A stretch of 64,000 nucleotides of DNA from Escherichia coli (GTDB lineage Bacteria > Pseudomonadota > Gammaproteobacteria > Enterobacterales > Enterobacteriaceae), in the NCBI RefSeq assembly GCF_044324785.1, contig NZ_CP172127.1, one strand, 5' to 3'. Shown here one piece after another: positions 19,540-41,269 of this stretch; the first letter of the stretch is position 1, and the number at the start of each line of letters is the position of its first letter. The notes under the pieces were generated by a model. The model ran no database searches. It was given only the letters and a program-made list of their open reading frames with translations, and was not told the origin of the DNA. Position numbers and translations under genes: made by a program.

Positions 19540-19716
19540 TACGCTTAAAGCATTCAGGACTTGTGCTGTTTTGCGTTTTCCGTGGAGATGGAGGGTTATA
19601 CCGTCAGAGCTAATAATTTGTCGACTGCATCTCCATCCGCAAGGTAACTGTAGAAGTGTCTGGTGATGCTGCCAACTTACTGATTTAGTGTATGATGGTG
19701 TTTTTGAGGTGCTCCA

Positions 19717-19992
19717 GTGGCTTCTGTTTCTATCAGCTGTCCCTCCTGTTCAGCTACTGACGGGGTGGTGCGTAACGGCAAAAGCACCGCCGGACATCAG
19801 CGCTATCTCTGCTCTCACTGCCGTAAAACATGGCAACTGCAGTTCACTTACACCGCTTCTCAACCCGGTACGCACCAGAAAATCATTGATATGGCCATGA
19901 ATGGCGTTGGATGCCGGGCAACTGCCCGCATTATGGGCGTTGGCCTCAACACGATTTTACGTCACTTAAAAAACTCAGGCCGCAGTCGGTAA
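19717..19992 (+). CDS. insA: IS1 InsA
   Basis: [43 protein letters not shown]... matches IS1 InsA. Confidence 0.9.
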
Positions 19993-20414
19993 CCTCGCGC
20001 ATACAGCCGGGCAGTGACGTCATCGTCTGCGCGGAAATGGACGAACAGTGGGGCTATGTCGGGGCTAAATCGCGCCAGCGCTGGCTGTTTTACGCGTATG
20101 ACAGTCTCCGGAAGACGGTTGTTGCGCACGTATTCGGTGAACGCACTATGGCGACGCTGGGGCGTCTTATGAGCCTGCTGTCACCCTTTGACGTGGTGAT
20201 ATGGATGACGGATGGCTGGCCGCTGTATGAATCCCGCCTGAAGGGAAAGCTGCACGTAATCAGCAAGCGATATACGCAGCGAATTGAGCGGCATAACCTG
20301 AATCTGAGGCAGCACCTGGCACGGCTGGGACGGAAGTCGCTGTCGTTTTCAAAATCGGTGGAGCTGCATGACAAAGTCATCAGGCATTATCTGAACATAA
20401 AACACTATCAATAA
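19911..20414 (+). CDS. insB: IS1 InsB frame (expressed as InsAB' by -1 frameshifting)
   Basis: ORF carrying the IS1 InsB sequence ...[47 protein letters not shown]...; coordinates are the open frame, not a defined start. Confidence 0.8.
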
Positions 20415-20429
20415 GTTGGAGTCATTACC

Positions 20430-32019: not shown

Positions 32020-32904
32020 ATGTCATTCAGCCATTCTTCCCTCTCTGCACAAGTGAAATCATATCTGACGTTTCTTCCTGAAGAAATTCGCCAGAAAATC
32101 CTTGAACATCTCCACGGTGTTATTCATTACGAGCCCGTGATTGGCATTATGGGTAAATCCGGCACAGGCAAAAGCAGCCTGTGTAATGCCATTTTTCAGT
32201 CCCATATCTGCGCCACGCATCCCCTGAACGGCTGCACCCGCCAGGCTCATCACCTCACCCTGCAGATCGGTGAACGCAGAATGACGCTGGTCGATCTGCC
32301 CGGCATTGGTGAGACACCGCAGCATGATCAGGAATACCGGGCACTTTATCATCAGTTGCTACCGGAACTGGATCTGATTATCTGGATCCTGCGGGCTGAT
32401 GAACGTGCGTATGCTGCCGATATTGCCATGCATCAGTTTTTACTGAATGAAGATGCCGATCCCTCGCGTTTTCTGTTTGTTCTCAGCCATGCCGATCGCG
32501 TGTTTCCTGCTGAAGAATGGAACGACACAGAAAAATGCCCGTCCCGTCAGCAGGAACTCTCACTGGCGACAGTAACAGCCCGGGTGGCCACCCTGTTCCC
32601 GTCATCATTTCCGGTACTCTCCGTTGCAGCGCCTGTCGGCTGGAATCTTCAGGCACTGGTGTCACTGATGATCCACGCACTGCCACCACAGGCAACCAGC
32701 GCGGTTTATTCGCATATCCGGAATGAAAAGCGCACTGCGCAGGATCAGCAACACGCACAGCAGGCTTTTGGTGACGCCATCGGCCAGAGTTTTGACGCTG
32801 CCATTGCCCGGTTCAGCTTTCCGGCCTGGATGCTGCAGCTTCTGCGCAAAGCCCGTGATCGCATTATCCGCCTGCTGATCACACTGTGGGATCGCCTGTT
32901 CTGA
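32020..32904 (+). CDS. YfjP/YeeP/YkfA-family GTPase (50S ribosome-binding GTPase domain)
   Basis: P-loop GIMGKSGTGKSSLCNAIF, then DLPGIGE (G3); conserved first gene of the CP4-type island terminal module. Confidence 0.8.
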   Translation: MSFSHSSLSAQVKSYLTFLPEEIRQKILEHLHGVIHYEPVIGIMGKSGTGKSSLCNAIFQSHICATHPLNGCTRQAHHLTLQIGERRMTLVDLPGIGETPQHDQEYRALYHQLLPELDLIIWILRADERAYAADIAMHQFLLNEDADPSRFLFVLSHADRVFPAEEWNDTEKCPSRQQELSLATVTARVATLFPSSFPVLSVAAPVGWNLQALVSLMIHALPPQATSAVYSHIRNEKRTAQDQQHAQQAFGDAIGQSFDAAIARFSFPAWMLQLLRKARDRIIRLLITLWDRLF

Positions 32905-33089: not shown

Positions 33090-33908
33090 ATGCGATTAGC
33101 CAGTCGTTTTGGTTATGCGAACCAGATACGCCGTGACCGTCCGCTGACCCGTGAAGAGCTGATGCACCATGTGCCCGGGATTTTCGGGGAAGATAAACAC
33201 ACCTCCCGGAGCCGGAACTATACATACATCCCCACCATCACCGTGCTGGAAAGCCTGCAGCGGGAAGGCTTTCAGCCATTCTTCGCCTGCCAGACCCGCG
33301 TACGTGACCCGGGCCGCCGGGGGTATACCAAACACATGCTGCGTCTGCGCCGTGACGGGGAGATAAACGGACAACATGTCCCTGAAATCATCCTGCTGAA
33401 CTCCCATGACGGTACCTCCAGCTACCAGATGCTGCCGGGTTACTTCAGGTTCGTCTGCCAGAACGGATGCGTCTGCGGTCAGTCTCTGGGGGAAGTGCGT
33501 GTTCCGCACCGGGGAAATGTGGTGGACAGAGTCATTGAAGGGGCTTACGAGGTGGTGGGCGTGTTTGACCGGATAGAGGAGAAGCGTGATGCCATGCAGT
33601 CGCTGGTCCTGCCGCCACCGGCACGCCAGGCGCTGGCACAGGCGGCACTGACTTACCGTTATGGTGACGAACATCAGCCCGTCACCACCGCCGACATTCT
33701 GACACCACGACGCCGGGAGGATTACGGTAAGGACCTGTGGAGTGCTTATCAGACCATCCAGGAGAATATGCTGAAAGGCGGGATTTCCGGTCGCAGTGCA
33801 AAAGGAAAACGTATCCATACCCGGGCCATTCACAGCATTGATACCGATATAAAACTCAACCGCGCATTGTGGGTGATGGCAGAAACGCTGCTGGAGAGCA
33901 TGCGCTGA
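33090..33908 (+). CDS. DUF932-family protein (YfjQ-like)
   Basis: 272 aa; position and size match the YfjQ slot of CP4-type islands; recalled similarity only. Confidence 0.7.
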   Translation: MRLASRFGYANQIRRDRPLTREELMHHVPGIFGEDKHTSRSRNYTYIPTITVLESLQREGFQPFFACQTRVRDPGRRGYTKHMLRLRRDGEINGQHVPEIILLNSHDGTSSYQMLPGYFRFVCQNGCVCGQSLGEVRVPHRGNVVDRVIEGAYEVVGVFDRIEEKRDAMQSLVLPPPARQALAQAALTYRYGDEHQPVTTADILTPRRREDYGKDLWSAYQTIQENMLKGGISGRSAKGKRIHTRAIHSIDTDIKLNRALWVMAETLLESMR

Positions 33909-33999: not shown

Positions 34000-34485
34000 A
34001 TGACAACCTTTTCGCATAGCTCCACCACACCTTCTGTTTCCGTAACTACTGCATCAGGGAATAACCAGTCTCAACTGGTTGCCACTCCCGTCCCTGATGA
34101 ACAGCGCATCAGCTTCTGGCCGCAGCATTTTGGCCTCATTCCACAGTGGGTGACCCTGGAGCCCCGTGTCTTCGGCTGGATGGACCGTCTGTGCGAAGAC
34201 TACTGCGGTGGTATCTGGAATCTGTACACCCTGAACAACGGCGGGGCATTTATGGCCCCCGAACCGGATGATGATGATGACGAAACATGGGTACTGTTCA
34301 ATGCCATGAACGGTAACCGCGCTGAAATGAGCCCGGAAGCCGCCGGCATTGCTGCCTGTCTGATGACGTACAGTCATCACGCCTGCCGTACGGAGTGTTA
34401 TGCCATGACGGTTCATTATTACCGTCTGCGGGATTACGCCCTGCAGCATCCGGAATGCAGCGCCATTATGCGCATCATTGACTGA
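34000..34485 (+). CDS. Antirestriction protein (ArdB/KlcA-like; YfjX/YafX family)
   Basis: 161 aa with acidic stretch PEPDDDDDETW and ...GGIWNLYTLNNGGAFMAPE, typical of KlcA/ArdB-like island proteins. Confidence 0.7.
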   Translation: MTTFSHSSTTPSVSVTTASGNNQSQLVATPVPDEQRISFWPQHFGLIPQWVTLEPRVFGWMDRLCEDYCGGIWNLYTLNNGGAFMAPEPDDDDDETWVLFNAMNGNRAEMSPEAAGIAACLMTYSHHACRTECYAMTVHYYRLRDYALQHPECSAIMRIID

Positions 34486-34500
34486 AAGGGGGCCGGAACA

Positions 34501-34977
34501 ATGCAACAGATTTCCTTTCTGCCCGGAGAAATGACAACCAGAGAGCGCAGCCTCATTCAGCGGGCCCTGAAAGCCCTGGACCGCCATCTTCATGAACCCG
34601 GCGTGGCCTTCACCTCCACCCGTGCGGCACGGGAATGGCTGATTCTGAACATGGCGGGACTGGAGCGTGAAGAATTCCGGGTGCTGTATCTGAACAACCA
34701 GAATCAGCTGATTGCCGGTGAAACCCTCTTCACCGGCACCATCAACCGCACGGAAGTCCATCCCCGGGAAGTGATTAAACGCGCCCTGTACCACAATGCC
34801 GCTGCCGTGGTGCTGGCACACAATCACCCGTCCGGTGAAGTCACACCCAGTAAGGCAGACCGCCTTATTACGGAACGTCTGGTACAGGCACTGGCCCTGG
34901 TGGATATCCGGGTGCCGGACCATCTGATAGTCGGTGGCAGCCAGGTTTTCTCCTTTGCCGAACATGGTCTGCTTTAA
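34501..34977 (+). CDS. RadC-like JAB/MPN-domain protein (YeeS/YfjY/YkfG family)
   Basis: JAMM motif HNHPSGEVTPSKADRLITERL; 158 aa. Confidence 0.85.
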   Translation: MQQISFLPGEMTTRERSLIQRALKALDRHLHEPGVAFTSTRAAREWLILNMAGLEREEFRVLYLNNQNQLIAGETLFTGTINRTEVHPREVIKRALYHNAAAVVLAHNHPSGEVTPSKADRLITERLVQALALVDIRVPDHLIVGGSQVFSFAEHGLL

Positions 34978-35039: not shown

Positions 35040-35261
35040 ATGAAAATCATCACCCGTGGTGAAGCCATGCGTATTCACCAACAGCATCCTGCATCCCGTC
35101 TTTTTCCGTTCTGTACCGGCAAATACCGCTGGCACGGTGGCACTGAAGCGTATACCGGTCGTGAAGTGCAGGATATTCCCGGTGTGCTGGCCGTGTTTGC
35201 AGAACGCCGTAAGGACAGTTTTGGTCCGTATGTCCGGCTGATGAGCGTCACCCTGAACTGA
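35040..35261 (+). CDS. DUF987-family small protein (YeeT/YkfH/YpjJ-like)
   Basis: 73 aa; conserved slot between the radC-like gene and the TA pair. Confidence 0.6.
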   Translation: MKIITRGEAMRIHQQHPASRLFPFCTGKYRWHGGTEAYTGREVQDIPGVLAVFAERRKDSFGPYVRLMSVTLN

Positions 35262-35275
35262 GTCAGGGCATTCTG

Positions 35276-35920
35276 ATGAGCAGAATTATCACCATCACAG
35301 TGTATACGCTGGATGAACTTTCCTGCCCGGCACGGGAAAAAGCCCGCGACGGGTACCGTCAGCATCATGCTGACAGCAGCTGGTATGAAAACGTGTATGA
35401 GGACTTCAGGGCGGTCTGTGACATTGTCGGGATTGCCCTCCGCCAGCGAGTTATCCGGCTCAGCAGCGGCAGGTTTATGGAAGAGCCGTGCATCTGGTTC
35501 AGCGGCTTCAGCAGCCAGGGGGACGGAGCCTGTTTTGACGGGCGCTGGCACTGGCAGCCGGCAACAGCCAGGAAAATCCGGGAATATGCCCCGCAGGACC
35601 GTGAGCTTCATCGTATCGCGGATGCCCTGCAGGCGGTGCAGAAGCGTAACTTCCGGCAGCTTCAGGCTGAAATCCGCCACCGGGGACGCTACTGCCATCC
35701 GTACAGCATGGATATCACCGTCACCCGGGACAGTCCGACTGGTCAGGCTATGACAGCCGATGCGGAAGCCGCTGTCAGCGAAGCCCTGCGCGACCTGGCC
35801 TTCTGGCTGTACCGTCAACTGGAAAACGAGTACGACCAGATGACCTCAGACGCCGCTGTGGATGAGGCCATTCTCATCAATGCATACATCTTCACCGAAA
35901 CCGGTCAGCGCACCGGCTGA
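35276..35920 (+). CDS. Hypothetical protein (214 aa) in the variable slot between the DUF987 gene and cbeA
   Basis: ORF with consistent coding composition; no motif recognised; the overlapping antisense ORF 35075..35818 is rejected. Confidence 0.5.
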   Translation: MSRIITITVYTLDELSCPAREKARDGYRQHHADSSWYENVYEDFRAVCDIVGIALRQRVIRLSSGRFMEEPCIWFSGFSSQGDGACFDGRWHWQPATARKIREYAPQDRELHRIADALQAVQKRNFRQLQAEIRHRGRYCHPYSMDITVTRDSPTGQAMTADAEAAVSEALRDLAFWLYRQLENEYDQMTSDAAVDEAILINAYIFTETGQRTG

Positions 35921-35969: not shown

Positions 35970-36338
35970 GTGTCAGACACACTCTCCGGGATAACTCATC
36001 CCGACGACAATCACGACCGCCCCTGGTGGGGGCTTCCCTGCACAGTGAGGCCCTGTTTTGGCGCCCGTCTGGTGCAGGAGGGTAACCGGTTGCATTACCT
36101 TGCCGACCGCGCCGGCATCAGAGGCCGGTTCAGCGATGCGGATGCATACCATCTGGACCAGGCCTTTCCGCTGCTGATGAAACAACTGGAACTCATGCTC
36201 ACCAGCGGTGAACTGAATCCCCGCCATCAGCATACCGTCACGCTGTATGCAAAAGGGCTGACCTGCGAAGCCGACACCCTCGGCAGTTGTGGTTACGTTT
36301 ATCTGGCTGTTTATCCGACGCCCGAAACGAAAAAGTAA
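35970..36338 (+). CDS. cbeA: CbeA/YeeU/YfjZ-family type IV antitoxin
   Basis: MSDTLSGITHPDDNHDRPWWGLPCTVRPCFGARLVQEGNRLHYLADRAGIRGRF...YVYLAVYPTPE matches the family. Confidence 0.8.
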   Translation: MSDTLSGITHPDDNHDRPWWGLPCTVRPCFGARLVQEGNRLHYLADRAGIRGRFSDADAYHLDQAFPLLMKQLELMLTSGELNPRHQHTVTLYAKGLTCEADTLGSCGYVYLAVYPTPETKK

Positions 36339-36428
36339 ACCACCGGAATAACCTTCTGCTCCGGCCAGGTGTTTTCACCACGCCACTCTCCCCATAATTT
36401 AATCTCTCATATCAGGAAAATCTTCAGT

Positions 36429-36839
36429 ATGAAATTATTACCCGACACACATGTACGGGAGGCATCGTGCTGCCCGTCTCCCGTCACCATCTGGCAGACA
36501 CTGCTCATCCGTCTGCTGGACCAGCACTATGGCCTCACACTGAATGACACACCGTTCGCTGATGAACGTGTGATTGAGCAGCATATTGAGGCCGGCATTT
36601 CACTGTGCGATGCGGTGAACTTTCTCGTTGAAAAATACGCACTGGTACGTACCGACCAGCCGGGATTCAGCGCAGGAGCCCCGTCGCAGTTAATCAACAG
36701 CATCGATATTCTCCGGGCCCGCCGGGCAACAGGCCTGATGACACGTAATAACTACAGAATGGTAAATAACATTACCCTGGGTAGCATCCGGGGGCGAAAC
36801 GATGAAACTTTCCCTGACGCTGGAAGCCGACAGCGTTAA
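36429..36839 (+). CDS. cbtA: CbtA/YeeV/YpjF-family toxin (cytoskeleton-binding toxin)
   Basis: ...[67 protein letters not shown]...[16 protein letters not shown] matches the CbtA family; start set at MKLLPDTH. Confidence 0.75.
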
Positions 36840-37227
36840 CGTACAGGCGCTGAACATGGGGCGAATTGTCGTTGACATTGATGGTGTTGAGCTCACTGAA
36901 CTGATTAACAAGGTCGCTGAAAACGGTTATTCACTCCGCGTGGTGGATGAACGTGACGCTACCGAAACACCGGCGACTTCTGCCAGCTCTCATCAGTTGC
37001 CGGAAGACAATACAGTGATACAGAGCGTGATGCCATTAACCACTGAAACAGCGCTGGATATCCTCATTGCGTGGCTGCAGGACAATATCGACTGCGGGTC
37101 CGGAATTATTTTCGACAACGATGAGGATAAAACGGATTCGGCAGCACTGCTGCCCTGTATCGAACAGGCCAGAGCAGATATCCGCACCCTGCGCCAGCTG
37201 CAGCAGCTTCTGCAACAGAACCGGTGA
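36802..37227 (+). CDS. YeeW-like hypothetical protein
   Basis: 141-aa ORF in the slot occupied by yeeW downstream of cbtA in CP4-44 (recalled); overlaps the cbtA 3' end. Confidence 0.45.
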
Positions 37228-37323
37228 GTCTTACTCATCATCTCACTCACCAGACTTCATTCCACTGACACCAGCCTGAACAGGGCTGGCGTTTTCATTT
37301 ATCTGCAAAAAGGAATATCGATT

Positions 37324-38190
37324 ATGTCTAAAATCACAGTCTCCCGTCCGGAAGTGGTCAACGGGCATACGGACGTTATCTGTTCCACCTCAATCTGCCA
37401 CATTCTGGCTGTACGAAAGAATACACTGCTGCAAATCGACACACTTATCCGGCAACTGGCTGAAATCTCGGTGCTGACGGAAAGCATCGGAGGTAAAACT
37501 GCCCCGGACTGGGCCATGAAACAGGATTTTCGCTGCGGATGCTGGCTCATGGAGAAACCTGAAACGGCAATGAAAGCCATTACCCGGAATCTTGACCGCG
37601 AAATCTGGCGTGACCTGATGCAACGTTCAGGGATGCTTTCCTTAATGGATGCACAGGCCCGTGATACATGGTACCGATCACTGGAATACGATAATTTTCC
37701 GGAAATCAGTGAAGCGAACATTCTGAGCACATTTGAACAACTGCACCAGAATAAGGATGAGGTGTTTGAGCGAGGGGTGATCAACGTCTTCAGGGGACTG
37801 AGCTGGAATTACAAAACCAATTGCCCCTGCAAATTTGGCAGTAAAATTATCGTCAACAACCTGGTGAGGTGGGACCGGTGGGGGTTTCATCTGAACAACG
37901 GCCCACAGGCCGATCGACTTGCCGATCTGGAAAGAATGCTGCACCTGTTCAGCGGCAAACCGATCCCCGACAACCGGGAAAACATCACCATTCATCTGGA
38001 TGATCACATCCAGTCTGTTCAGGGTAAAGAGGACTATGAAGATGAGATGTTCAGCATCAGATACTTTAAGAAGGGCTCCGCGCACATCACGTTCAGGAAA
38101 CCAGAGCTGGTTGACAGGCTTAATGATATTATTGCCAGACACTACCCGGAAGCCCTGGCAAGCACAGTGAACAAAAGCCGCAAGGCATAA
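37324..38190 (+). CDS. Hypothetical protein (288 aa), conserved-looking island protein of unknown function
   Basis: Long ORF with the GGAATATCGATTATG start context; no catalytic motif recognised. Confidence 0.5.
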   Translation: MSKITVSRPEVVNGHTDVICSTSICHILAVRKNTLLQIDTLIRQLAEISVLTESIGGKTAPDWAMKQDFRCGCWLMEKPETAMKAITRNLDREIWRDLMQRSGMLSLMDAQARDTWYRSLEYDNFPEISEANILSTFEQLHQNKDEVFERGVINVFRGLSWNYKTNCPCKFGSKIIVNNLVRWDRWGFHLNNGPQADRLADLERMLHLFSGKPIPDNRENITIHLDDHIQSVQGKEDYEDEMFSIRYFKKGSAHITFRKPELVDRLNDIIARHYPEALASTVNKSRKA

Positions 38191-38261
38191 AAGAGGTATT
38201 TTACAATTCGCGAATATTAACTATTATTAATTGATAGTAATCAATCGGCGAGAAAATAACC

Positions 38262-38525
38262 ATGCCTACCAGTGTATCCCTCAGTCCTTACTTTGAAACG
38301 TTTATCCGCGAACAAATAGAAAGTGGTCGGTACAACAATACAAGTGAAGTCATTCGTGCCGGACTTCGTGCGCTGGAAGAACGGGAACAGCAGATAAAGC
38401 TTGAATCACTCCAGAGCGCCGTGACCGCAGGCATCAACAGCGGTGAAAGTAAAAGTGCTGAAGAGGTATTCGGGCGACTGACGCACAAATACAAAAAGAT
38501 GGCAGAAGGTGAACAGCCAATATGA
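38262..38525 (+). CDS. parD: ParD-family type II antitoxin (ribbon-helix-helix)
   Basis: 87 aa; ...SEVIRAGLRALEEREQQIKLESLQSAVTAGINSGES... typical of ParD; stop overlaps the toxin start (ATGA at 38522). Confidence 0.75.
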   Translation: MPTSVSLSPYFETFIREQIESGRYNNTSEVIRAGLRALEEREQQIKLESLQSAVTAGINSGESKSAEEVFGRLTHKYKKMAEGEQPI

Positions 38526-38848
38526 AACTGACTGTTTCACCATTAGCAGAACACGATCTTGAAGCTATAGGTGACTGGATCGCTCAGGATAATCCTGTCC
38601 GTGCAATCAGTTTTACCGAAGAGCTTTACCAACAATGTCTGTTGATAGCCGAATCGCCAGTACTCTACAGAGAAAGACCCGAGTTAGGGGCTGGGATCAG
38701 AGGTTGTTCGTATGGTCGTTACCTTCTGCTGTTCAGGGTACTGGATACTGAAGTTCGTATCGAACGTATCGTTCATGGTTCCCGGGATATCAACAGGGTA
38801 CTTGCAGAGCCAGACGACAAACCATCAGATCATTTCTGGCAGCCATAA
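38522..38848 (+). CDS. parE: ParE/RelE-family type II toxin
   Basis: 108 aa, ...LLLFRVLDTEVRIERIVHGSRD... ParE-like; translationally coupled to parD. Confidence 0.75.
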   Translation: MKLTVSPLAEHDLEAIGDWIAQDNPVRAISFTEELYQQCLLIAESPVLYRERPELGAGIRGCSYGRYLLLFRVLDTEVRIERIVHGSRDINRVLAEPDDKPSDHFWQP

Positions 38849-39095
38849 ACAAAATCTGTGCGTTAACGCTCCCTAACACAGGTAGCCAGGTATTTTATAA
38901 ATCTCTGTATTTTGTTGTCACTTCGATTCCGCGATTCAGCATATCGAACCAGATAAAATGATTACAACAAACCACAAGAAAGAGGGATTATAGCGTCAAA
39001 AGAATTCGAATTGCACATGGGGGCCTCATTGGTGGCCTCAAAAATAACAAACACAAAACAATCAATATAAAACAACTTGTTATACAACCAGTTTC

Positions 39096-39114
39096 ATTCC
39101 GAGTCCGGGCACCA
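39096..39114 (+). repeat. 19-nt direct repeat of the tRNA-Phe 3' end (attR-like island boundary)
   Basis: ATTCCGAGTCCGGGCACCA equals the 3' terminal 19 nt of E. coli tRNA-Phe (pheU/pheV) as recalled; upstream sequence does not fold as a tRNA; followed by the tRNA-type terminator. Confidence 0.7.
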
Positions 39115-39126
39115 AATTCATATAAA

Positions 39127-39151
39127 CGGACCTCCACGGAGGTCCGTTTTT
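39127..39151 (+). terminator. Intrinsic terminator (native pheU-downstream type)
   Basis: CGGACCTCC-ac-GGAGGTCCG followed by TTTTT. Confidence 0.6.
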
Positions 39152-39730
39152 CGTTTCAGGACGCCACAATTTAAGCGTTCTGCCTAAAAATCATTTCTAC
39201 CGAACTCAACCAGATTCTCCCCACATCACCAGCAATTTGCGGGCATATCCCAATTCGGGGAAATGTGTTCCTGAGCTATAGCACTGACTGACGTGAAATG
39301 TCGTGCGGCCCCGTGATGCTGTTGAACGTCAAATGACGTCATCAGGAGCGTAACGCATCCATAAAGCACAACATCGGGCAGAACGCCGACTGATAAGATT
39401 TTCTGAATGAGAACAAAGAGAAATGTATCAGTCCGCTTGCTCATGCAAAGACTAACAATCCATTAAAATAGTAAGCGCTCCGGGCAATTTTCCATGGATT
39501 ATTTTCTGAACATTTTTCTTTGGCAAAGATGATGAATTTTGATGGTAAGGAATATTACTTCTGGTTCTCAGTAAAATCCTTTCGTAATACTATGTGATCA
39601 AGAAGTTTATGGCTGGTAAAAATAACGTCTTGCATTCACCAATAATATGTAAATAAACCCATCTATAGATGGTAAAAATAGGTTGTGGCAATTATCATTG
39701 CATCATTCCCTTTTCGAATGAGTTTCTATT

Positions 39731-41269
39731 ATGCAACAACCTGTAGTTCGCGTTGGCGAATGGCTTGTTACTCCGTCCATAAACCAAATTAGCCGCAATG
39801 GGCGTCAACTTACCCTTGAGCCGAGATTAATCGATCTTCTGGTTTTCTTTGCTCAACACAGTGGCGAAGTACTTAGCAGGGATGAACTTATCGATAATGT
39901 CTGGAAGAGAAGTATTGTCACCAATCACGTTGTGACGCAGAGTATCTCAGAACTACGTAAGTCATTAAAAGATAATGATGAAGATAGTCCTGTCTATATC
40001 GCTACTGTACCAAAGCGCGGCTATAAATTAATGGTGCCGGTTATCTGGTACAGCGAAGAAGAGGGAGAGGAAATAATGCTATCTTCGCCTCCCCCTATAC
40101 CAGAGGCGGTTCCTGACACAGCTTCTCCCTCCCACAGTCTTAACATTCAAAACACCGCAACACCACCTGAACAATCCCCTGTTAAAAGCAAACGATTCAC
40201 TACCTTTTGGGTATGGTTTTTTTTCCTGTTGTCGTTAGGTATCTGTGTAGCACTGGTAGCGTTTTCAAGTCTTGATACACGTCTTCCTATGAGCAAATCG
40301 CGTATTTTGCTCAATCCACGCGATATTGACATTAATATGGTTAATAAGAGTTGTAACAGCTGGAGTTCTCCGTATCAGCTCTCTTACGCGATAGGCGTGG
40401 GTGATTTGGTGGCGACATCACTTAACACCTTCTCCACCTTTATGGTGCATGACAAAATCAACTACAACATTGATGAACCGAGCAGTTCCGGTAAAACATT
40501 ATCTATTGCGTTTGTTAATCAGCGCCAATACCGTGCTCAACAATGCTTTATGTCGGTAAAATTGGTAGACAATGCAGATGGTTCAACCATGCTGGATAAA
40601 CGTTATGTCATCACTAACGGTAATCAGCTGGCGATTCAAAATGATTTACTCCAGAGTTTATCAAAAGCGTTAAACCAACCATGGCCACAACGAATGCAGG
40701 AGATGCTCCAGCAAATTTTGCCGCATCGTGGTGCGTTATTAACTAATTTTTATCAGGCACATGATTATTTACTGCATGGTGATGATAAATCATTGGATCG
40801 TGCCAGTGAATTATTAGGTGAGATTGTTCAATCATCCCCAGAATTTACCTACGCGAGAGCAGAAAAAGCATTAGTTGATATCGTGCGCCATTCTCAACAT
40901 CCTTTAGCCGAAAAACAATTAGCAGCACTGAACACAGAAATAGATAACATTGTTACACTGCCGGAATTGAACAACCTGTCCATTATATATCAAATAAAAG
41001 CGGTCAGTGCCCTGGTAAAAGGTAAAACAGATGAGTCTTATCAGGCGATAAATACTGGCATTGATCTTGAAATGTCCTGGCTAAATTATGTGTTGCTTGG
41101 CAAGGTTTATGAAATGAAGGGGATGAACCGGGAAGCAGCTGATGCATATCTCACCGCCTTTAATTTACGCCCAGGGGCAAACACCCTTTACTGGATTGAA
41201 AATGGTATATTCCAGACTTCTGTTCCTTATGTTGTACCTTATCTCGACAAATTTCTCGCTTCAGAATAA
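39731..41269 (+). CDS. cadC: CadC, membrane-integrated ToxR-like activator of cadBA
   Basis: 512 aa, MQQPVVRVGEWLVTPSINQISRNGRQLTLEPRLIDLLVFF...; single TM segment (FTTFWVWFFFLLSLGICVALVAF); matches K-12 CadC. Confidence 0.95.
   Translation: MQQPVVRVGEWLVTPSINQISRNGRQLTLEPRLIDLLVFFAQHSGEVLSRDELIDNVWKRSIVTNHVVTQSISELRKSLKDNDEDSPVYIATVPKRGYKLMVPVIWYSEEEGEEIMLSSPPPIPEAVPDTASPSHSLNIQNTATPPEQSPVKSKRFTTFWVWFFFLLSLGICVALVAFSSLDTRLPMSKSRILLNPRDIDINMVNKSCNSWSSPYQLSYAIGVGDLVATSLNTFSTFMVHDKINYNIDEPSSSGKTLSIAFVNQRQYRAQQCFMSVKLVDNADGSTMLDKRYVITNGNQLAIQNDLLQSLSKALNQPWPQRMQEMLQQILPHRGALLTNFYQAHDYLLHGDDKSLDRASELLGEIVQSSPEFTYARAEKALVDIVRHSQHPLAEKQLAALNTEIDNIVTLPELNNLSIIYQIKAVSALVKGKTDESYQAINTGIDLEMSWLNYVLLGKVYEMKGMNREAADAYLTAFNLRPGANTLYWIENGIFQTSVPYVVPYLDKFLASE

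Follow-up and report, generated by a model that had tools for sequence, protein, structure and literature searches.

The open reading frame (ORF) at positions 37324–38190 of the 64,000-nucleotide Escherichia coli window analyzed here (the whole stretch of DNA taken from contig NZ_CP172127.1) is a real, conserved gene under purifying selection that encodes a 288-amino acid member of the DUF4942 family, and it is the terminal conserved gene of the backbone of a genomic island. In gene content and orientation, the right-end block of this island appears to be a chromosomal counterpart of the leading region of plasmids, where relatives of the protein are also found. We tentatively propose, with somewhat less than even confidence, that the DUF4942 protein is an early-acting establishment or counter-defence accessory, which would most likely shield entering DNA from restriction or a comparable DNA-targeting barrier by binding rather than by methylation.

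The initial annotation had described a genuine but unrecognized 288-amino acid island gene at this position, and the first half of that description stands. The plus-strand coding sequence of 867 nucleotides (nt) opens with ATG and is preceded, 9 nt upstream, by a Shine-Dalgarno-like AGGA read off the sequence (37311–37314, plus strand). Its product is identical to WP_115314300.1, the name under which RefSeq holds the 100% identical 867-nt coding sequence from five complete E. coli genomes as ‘DUF4942 domain-containing protein’. The further statement that no motif could be recognized holds for reading by eye only, since a profile search returns Pfam PF13708 (DUF4942) at once, with an E-value of 4.8e-69 and a score of 232.3 bits against a cut-off of 25, such that profile positions 1–190 of 190 are matched by amino acids 87–276. 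At E≤1e-3, 2217 cluster representatives (50% identity clusters) match the protein. For the analysis of related loci, one genome per species was scanned with a 16-sequence alignment and the best 80 of 237 relatives were mapped; all 80 loci are from Enterobacterales (Yersinia, Serratia, Pectobacterium, Erwinia, Dickeya, Hafnia, Photorhabdus, and others) and show 59–90% identity. An ORF of matching length is intact in 73 of these 80 orthologous loci. Comparison with the E. albertii orthologue gives a ratio of nonsynonymous to synonymous substitution rates (dN/dS) of 0.054/0.386 = 0.14, and the median over 20 pairs with unsaturated dS is likewise 0.14; four copies from Serratia sp. DD3 gave implausible dN values in the codon analysis, which probably reflect a start or alignment problem, and no conclusion was drawn from them. 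The profile match, the identical annotated coding sequences, the breadth of the family, the intact orthologues, and the low dN/dS are the reasons for treating the ORF as a gene and not as a chance frame. Two antisense ORFs over the same positions (161 and 154 amino acids) have no such support and were taken as by-products. The gene is already known in the sense that it is a plain DUF4942 member, annotated in RefSeq and covered by an existing Pfam family.

Is the gene cargo, as the initial annotation held, or does it belong to the island proper? To answer this, the array proteins of the window were mapped onto the 80 loci, a set that comprises close Enterobacterales relatives and no distant contexts. 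All of the recognized upstream genes (340/340) are co-directional with the DUF4942 gene, and the typical order is GTPase, DUF932, KlcA/ArdB-type antirestriction gene, RadC, DUF987, YeeU, CbtA, in some cases DUF5983, and DUF4942 almost always last. Upstream, 66 loci have CbtA, 62 have YeeU, 59 RadC, 36 the KlcA-type gene, 35 the GTPase, and 33 DUF932, while backbone genes are found 3′ of the DUF4942 gene in only 2 of the 80. The nearest upstream gene is CbtA or YeeU in 54 loci, always on the same strand, and in 29 loci the DUF4942 gene starts 11–32 nt past cbtA. The DNA beyond the gene is variable. A ParDE pair, present in the window, follows the DUF4942 gene in one of the 80 related loci outside E. 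coli, and elsewhere the same slot holds a ribbon-helix-helix protein with a ParE-like partner, AbiEi/AbiEii-like pairs, a helix-turn-helix (HTH) protein, the integrase of the next island, or core genes. At a Mixta locus and a Serratia locus the slot is nearly empty, such that the island terminus, including part of tRNA-Phe, lies ~145 nt past the DUF4942 stop codon. Because a conserved co-directional array stands upstream and variable DNA lies beyond the gene across the 80 loci, the DUF4942 gene is the terminal conserved gene of the island backbone, whereas ParDE occupies a variable cargo slot, rich in toxin–antitoxin genes, before the attachment (att) end. The placement of island copies as the fixed terminal gene of a leading-region-like backbone, followed by such a slot up to the att end, is what the present analysis adds to the existing annotation. 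A different order was seen in seven Yersinia/Serratia loci (L019, L020, L025, L030, L033, L034, and L044), in which a CbtA-like gene is followed by a YeeU-like gene and DUF4942 comes directly after the antitoxin.

Homologues are also abundant on plasmids. A tblastn search of PLSDB recovered them in 4839 of 72,556 plasmids (~6.7%), mostly at 33–40% identity over ~95% of the length, and 4004 of the 4839 carriers (83%) are predicted to be conjugative; the hosts are mainly Klebsiella, Escherichia, and Salmonella. On a pOXA-48-type IncL/M plasmid the homologue is found among JAB/RadC-like, HTH, and DGQHR genes, hha, DUF1380, a klcA-type antirestriction gene, and ssb, and the homologue and its neighbors lie on one strand pointing to mobA/traI. 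On an IncI-gamma/K1 plasmid it comes after a parB-like gene, psiB, psiA, and ardA, and adjoins the region of the transfer origin (oriT) and nikA. DUF4942/YdiA is among the families reported as enriched in leading regions (Samuel et al. 2024, Nature 635:186, PMC11541004, Suppl. Table 1). Family 24 of that list, ‘Uncharacterized; DUF4942; Methyltransferase’ (n = 2171; false discovery rate p = 0), has a median position of 1 from oriT and lies on the strand that can be transcribed from the transferred strand (T-strand), and a second DUF4942 family, no. 76, has 551 members (p = 2e-100). The same list also holds DUF905 (YubL/YkfF), DUF945/PF06067 (YubP/YafZ), and KlcA families. It is because the island array is built of families in this list that its right-end block may be regarded as the chromosomal counterpart of a leading region. 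Relatives are present in sixty phage records as well, and the stand-alone phage copies lie in early regions, beside Gam/ERF or beside ssb and recombination genes.

A fundamental question is what such a protein would do. Under the proposal made above, it would be an accessory module without enzymatic activity, acting early, as the DNA of an element enters a new cell, and most likely helping this incoming DNA to escape restriction or another DNA-targeting barrier. Its mode of action would be to bind DNA or a component of the host restriction-modification system, and not to methylate DNA; a resident island would carry the gene along within a leading-region-like establishment module, and the gene would be neither a toxin nor an antitoxin nor a defence gene. 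Plasmid relatives are enriched in leading regions together with anti-defence genes, which argues for a role in counter-defence or establishment rather than in defence. The addiction or defence role suggested by the initial annotation has no support, since neither PADLOC nor any toxin–antitoxin family matches the protein and its plasmid relatives gather beside genes of the opposite kind.

Several points weigh against this proposal. The role is assigned through guilt by association, that is, from position, neighbors, and fusions, and for an island the term leading region would be an analogy. Moreover, some leading-region genes have no anti-defence role, and some are not switched on when the DNA enters (PMC12672017). 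The protein has no homology to a known anti-restriction family (Pfam PF03230, ArdA) and no structural match to one either, and as a neutral protein it is no obviously basic DNA binder. The tight spacing of cbtA and DUF4942 in many genera could mean a toxin–antitoxin link, and the invariant polar and aromatic residues W95, G151, D201, H254, and N267 would also fit an enzyme of uncharacterized activity. Comparison of the window with the IncI-gamma and IncL/M oriT regions gave chance-level similarity only, an unrelated oriT being outside the scope of such a comparison. Finally, the literature that names DUF4942 uses it as an annotation label only, and we found no experiment on any DUF4942 protein.

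A bolder version of the proposal holds that the conserved right ends of P4-integrase-type tRNA islands in Enterobacterales are true leading regions, mobilized by conjugation as single-stranded DNA from an unrecognized oriT near the DUF4942/att end, in which case the DUF4942 protein would be a counter-defence effector of new fold and among the first proteins made in the recipient. We consider this version unlikely. Examination of the genes of the window, and its comparison with two plasmid oriT regions, yielded no oriT, relaxase, ssb, psiB, or Frpo-type sequence. Plasmid leading-region DNA gave chance matches in the window, plus homology limited to RadC, DUF4942, and an IS1 element, with no similarity in leading-region non-coding sequence.

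The region matched by the Pfam model (amino acids 87–276, encoded at 37582–38151 on the plus strand) consists of a helical part at amino acids 79–159 and an alpha/beta part at amino acids 174–273. Outside the model lies a conserved long N-terminal helix at amino acids ~21–55 (37384–37488, plus strand), identified from the alignment and from predicted secondary structure, in which S21 and R31 are nearly invariant. This helix is kept in island, plasmid, and methyltransferase-fused relatives, and the plasmid tblastn matches begin at amino acids 14–17 and so include it. The 288-amino acid protein contains the motifs FERGVI..F..LSW.YKTN.P.KFG, D.L.DLER, H(I/V)TF, and N.I.A.HYP.AL, in which the family-wide motifs LSW.YKTN.P, D.L.DL.R, and HYP.AL are all present, and the five invariant residues named above are so in both a 67-sequence and the 16-sequence alignment. 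An AlphaFold2 model built from the 67-sequence alignment is confident (mean predicted local distance difference test score 88; predicted template modeling score 0.81) and resolves a disordered stretch at amino acids 1–16, a helix at 24–54, a variable linker of lower confidence, a helical bundle at 79–159, and an alpha/beta portion at 174–273. No solved structural relative of this model was found, nor a match to a DNA-binding or Rossmann fold; searches of PDB sequences, run with the protein alone and again with the 67-sequence profile, returned nothing meaningful, and Foldseek against viral models returned family members only. Thus the profile and structure searches that the initial annotation had suggested yield the Pfam DUF4942 match and no solved structural relative, and no housekeeping family claims the protein. 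The NCBIfam scan gave no match, PADLOC-DB 2.0 gave 0 families at E≤1, and no toxin or antitoxin family was matched in Pfam, NCBIfam, or PADLOC. The protein is neutral, with an isoelectric point (pI) of 7.1 and a net charge of 0 (family median pI 7.4), and therefore is not a DNA mimic in the style of ArdA or Ocr; an acidic mimic was ruled out by this charge.

A second set of relatives bears on the question of DNA recognition. In PHROG 6263 (‘DNA methyltransferase’, 548 positions) only the N-terminal half matches the 288-amino acid protein. Likewise, phiPSA1 gp22 (543 amino acids), Aeromonas phage 4_D05 gp31 (531 amino acids), and five long representatives (460–559 amino acids) consist of the N-terminal helix and DUF4942 followed by a methyltransferase core, and they start with the same L(I/V)KS(I/V)SIENL motif as the stand-alone proteins. 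The fused core of ~190 amino acids carries FxTP, (V/C)L(E/D)PSAGxG, and NPPF/NPPY motifs, by which it is an amino-methyltransferase of the N6-adenine/N4-cytosine/m2G type, and its context makes DNA adenine the likely target. Such fusions are in the minority: only 5 of the 150 best DUF4942 representatives exceed 400 amino acids. Neither motif I (E/D-x-G-x-G) nor motif IV (D/N/S-P-P-Y/F/W) occurs in the 288 amino acids, although both occur in the fused relatives, and no methyltransferase Pfam family matches the protein at E≤0.01. A seven-stranded Rossmann-like fold was also considered for the protein and was dropped, as no structural match was obtained. Because the island protein has no methyltransferase domain, the name ‘restriction methylase’ attached to some homologues is wrong for it, a carry-over from the fusions. 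The analysis adds, in this respect, that ‘methylase’ is a misnomer for the stand-alone proteins, that the fused halves are independent modules, and that the fold is without a solved relative.

The converse situation was also encountered. About 60 stand-alone amino-methyltransferases (P0270–P0333) of ~250 amino acids with EPSAGxG and NPPF motifs occur in phage-like contigs (loci L096–L098); they carry an N-terminal extension of ~80 amino acids, which seems to match the linker domain present in the longer fusions (P0252, phiPSA1 gp22), and no DUF4942 gene is found nearby. The idea that a stand-alone DUF4942 protein is one half of a split methyltransferase was ruled out, as no methyltransferase gene adjoins it in the island or plasmid loci, and the same conclusion is reached from the other side, the stand-alone methyltransferase cores having no DUF4942 neighbor. 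Since the methyltransferase core also occurs alone and DUF4942 occurs mostly alone, the two are independent modules that are sometimes joined. The same pattern of joined modules is reportedly seen in phages and conjugative elements, among their ‘polyvalent’ counter-defence proteins.

An alternative hypothesis that follows from the fusions is that DUF4942 is the DNA-recognition or loading domain of a methyltransferase family, and that the stand-alone form binds specific or entering DNA together with a separate or host methyltransferase, or occludes sites. The fused module does sit directly N-terminal of a ~190-amino acid NPPF/NPPY core in which no separate target-recognition domain is obvious, and the whole module, N-terminal helix included, is kept in fused and free forms. 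However, the independence of the two modules weakens the case for DUF4942 as an obligatory target-recognition domain, given that the same core of ~250 amino acids exists alone in phage-like contigs and evidently does not need the module. None of the island, pOXA-48, or IncI loci has a methyltransferase gene beside its stand-alone DUF4942 gene, and the protein is neutral in charge with no recognized DNA-binding fold. For these reasons we regard a recognition domain as improbable.

Could the protein instead be an enzyme? In this hypothesis DUF4942 would be an enzyme of uncharacterized activity and new fold whose substrate during establishment would be DNA ends, nucleotides, or a host protein, for example in T-strand processing, recircularization, or complementary-strand synthesis. 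The invariant or near-invariant residues D91, E149, D201, R204, H254, and N267, with the K164-T165-N166 loop, could fit an active site; a role in DNA entry would agree with the median position of 1 from oriT, and the fold has no solved relative. On the other hand, no catalytic motif or fold was recognized, and neither relaxase nor oriT accompanies the phage and island copies. An enzymatic role is thus doubtful in our view.

The proximity of the toxin gene raises a further hypothesis, in which DUF4942 belongs to the CbtA/YeeU (type IV) toxin–antitoxin module, either as its third component or as its regulator. The short cbtA–DUF4942 interval in 29 of the 80 loci, and the 54 loci where CbtA or YeeU is the nearest upstream gene on the same strand, speak for this hypothesis. 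Nevertheless, plasmid and phage homologues have no CbtA or YeeU neighbors, so the pairing is not obligate, and in E. coli DUF5983, DUF957, and a terminator-like hairpin come between cbtA and DUF4942. There is no toxin–antitoxin or PADLOC profile match. The three CbtA-family loci of K-12 behave as toxin–antitoxin pairs, yet none has an annotated DUF4942 gene. In that genome (NC_000913.3) the arrays end after the toxin in CP4-6 and CP4-57 or after yeeW in CP4-44, and no DUF4942 gene is annotated in any of these three islands; because all three stop after the toxin or yeeW, the K-12 backbone is truncated at its DUF4942 end in CP4-6, CP4-44, and CP4-57. The K-12 gene yoeF was considered as a DUF4942 remnant and was ruled out as unrelated. 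A role within the CbtA/YeeU module is, taken together, distinctly unlikely.

Two hypotheses remain, both of low standing. A role in phage defence or abortive infection, as cargo of the island, would suit the place of the gene near the island end beside toxin–antitoxin modules, and the downstream slot does hold ParDE, AbiE-like, and other toxin–antitoxin-like pairs in different genomes. Such a role is very improbable all the same, as PADLOC gives no match at E≤1, the gene is conserved backbone and not variable cargo, and homologues are enriched where anti-defence genes gather and occur inside phages. That the protein is a decaying methyltransferase remnant or an active ‘restriction methylase’ can practically be dismissed: some sources name homologues ‘restriction methylase’ or ‘methyltransferase’ and fused relatives exist, but the protein has no S-adenosylmethionine-binding or NPPY motif, no methyltransferase Pfam domain, and no Rossmann-fold match, the stand-alone form is in the majority, and many genera keep an intact copy under purifying selection.

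The array that precedes the DUF4942 gene in the window lies entirely on the plus strand. It comprises Pfam-matched genes for a GTPase (32020–32904), DUF932 (33090–33908), a KlcA/ArdB-type Antirestrict protein (34000–34485), a RadC-like JAB protein (34501–34977), and DUF987 (35040–35261), then a 214-amino acid ORF (35276–35920), and then the CbeA/YeeU antitoxin (35970–36338, also by Pfam) and the CbtA toxin (ORF 36369–36839). The 214-amino acid ORF matches phrog_5162 (1e-35) and no Pfam family; its counterpart in strain 1223 is annotated as ‘hypothetical’ and it was seen in only 3 of the 80 related loci. The listed ORF for CbtA begins with GTG, and the Pfam match from residue 21 makes the ATG at 36429 (MKLLPDTHV...) the likely start. 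This ORF overlaps the next one by 38 nt as against 4 nt in annotated homologues, which suggests that CbtA has an altered C-terminus here. The next ORF, directly 5′ of the DUF4942 gene and initially described as yeeW-like, is a DUF5983_N::DUF957 fusion of 141 amino acids (36802–37227, plus strand), an in-frame join of the DUF5983 N-terminal domain to the DUF957 gene via a deletion of ~280 bp; in strains 23CRST007, 1517k, 1223, and STEC316 the two are separate genes of 489 and 198 nt. The terminator-like hairpin lies between this ORF and the DUF4942 gene at 37271–37289 on the plus strand, with a 7-bp stem containing 5 G-C pairs and a T-rich tail to 37299, and the identical sequence is present in strain 23CRST007. 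No consensus sigma-70 site was found between the hairpin (37271–37299) and the DUF4942 ATG. Farther upstream in the island, an IS1 copy at 19662–20429 is 98.8% identical to IS1B of a pOXA-48-type plasmid.

The initial annotation was also right to place two toxin–antitoxin systems around the gene and to place the gene close to the island boundary. YeeU/CbtA spans 35970–36839 upstream, and downstream come ParD (38262–38525) and ParE (38522–38848), both on the plus strand and both identified by profile match, with a promoter-like site at 38200–38227 and an operator-like palindrome at 38201–38220. Inverted repeats 3′ of the DUF4942 gene are weak. The right end of the island is marked ~0.9 kb past the DUF4942 stop codon by a tRNA-Phe 3′ fragment (39092–39114, plus strand; one match against 0 expected in shuffles), followed by a strong terminator (39124–39149), with cadC and cadB coming next. 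No complete tRNA is present in the window. This succession of tRNA-Phe fragment, terminator, and cadC/cadB, with no complete tRNA, identifies the element as a pheU-type island whose intact tRNA lies outside the window. An Rfam scan of 36000–40000 returned nothing. In near-identical genomes the equivalent of ~39312–39471, beyond the tRNA-Phe fragment and terminator, is annotated as a tyrosine integrase fragment, and strains 1517k and 1223 have a full integrase and a second island at that place. For this reason a second island in tandem seems to have been lost here, with its scar left in the window (39092–39471).

The presence of a DUF4942 gene here will not surprise a specialist, but the family is abundant and medically relevant by association. 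Of 5426 complete E. coli genomes, 3955 (~73%) carry the gene by megablast, with a median of 2 places and a maximum of 7 in each genome, and nearly all of these copies are chromosomal and annotated as DUF4942. The family is therefore carried by about three quarters of complete E. coli genomes and by thousands of conjugative resistance plasmids, pOXA-48 and IncI types included. One paper equates DUF4942 with SRL-island orf56 and LEE L0010, and absence from the K-12 islands that were checked may be a plausible reason why the family has no genetics. If it is true that the protein helps incoming DNA to evade host barriers, then resistance plasmids and pathogenicity islands would owe part of their spread to a widespread factor that has so far gone unexploited. 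Moreover, a gene set common to tRNA-island ends and plasmid leading regions would bear on how such islands move.

Comparison with known systems places the island protein within DUF4942 (PF13708), with which it shares the full profile, the length class of about 260–290 amino acids, and the N-terminal helix. The DUF4942 proteins of IncI and IncL/M plasmids are 33–40% identical to it, and the two subtypes differ in setting: the island subtype is chromosomal and comes after cbtA or DUF5983/DUF957, whereas the plasmid subtype comes after other leading-region genes and adjoins oriT. The phage orphan methyltransferases (phiPSA1 gp22, 4_D05 gp31; PHROG 6263) share the N-terminal helix and DUF4942, at E-values of 1e-26 to 1e-60 against Pfam, but have in addition their own C-terminal FxTP/EPSAGxG/NPPF-NPPY core and sometimes the ~80-amino acid linker, both of which the island protein lacks. 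With ArdA, Ocr, and ArdB/KlcA the likeness is one of genomic company and expected timing: a KlcA/ArdB-type gene lies 3 kb upstream in the island array, and klcA or ardA lies in the same plasmid leading regions as the DUF4942 homologue. ArdA and Ocr are acidic DNA mimics, in contrast to the island protein with its pI of 7.1, which shows no sequence or fold similarity to these two or to ArdB/KlcA. The closest parallel to the whole block is the plasmid leading region (PMC11541004). While the island array ends at a tRNA att site and not at oriT, it has DUF932/PF06067 (YubP/YafZ), KlcA/ArdB, toxin–antitoxin genes, and DUF4942 in common with leading regions, and it is co-directional with DUF4942 at its end, as on IncI plasmids, where DUF4942 is the gene closest to oriT.

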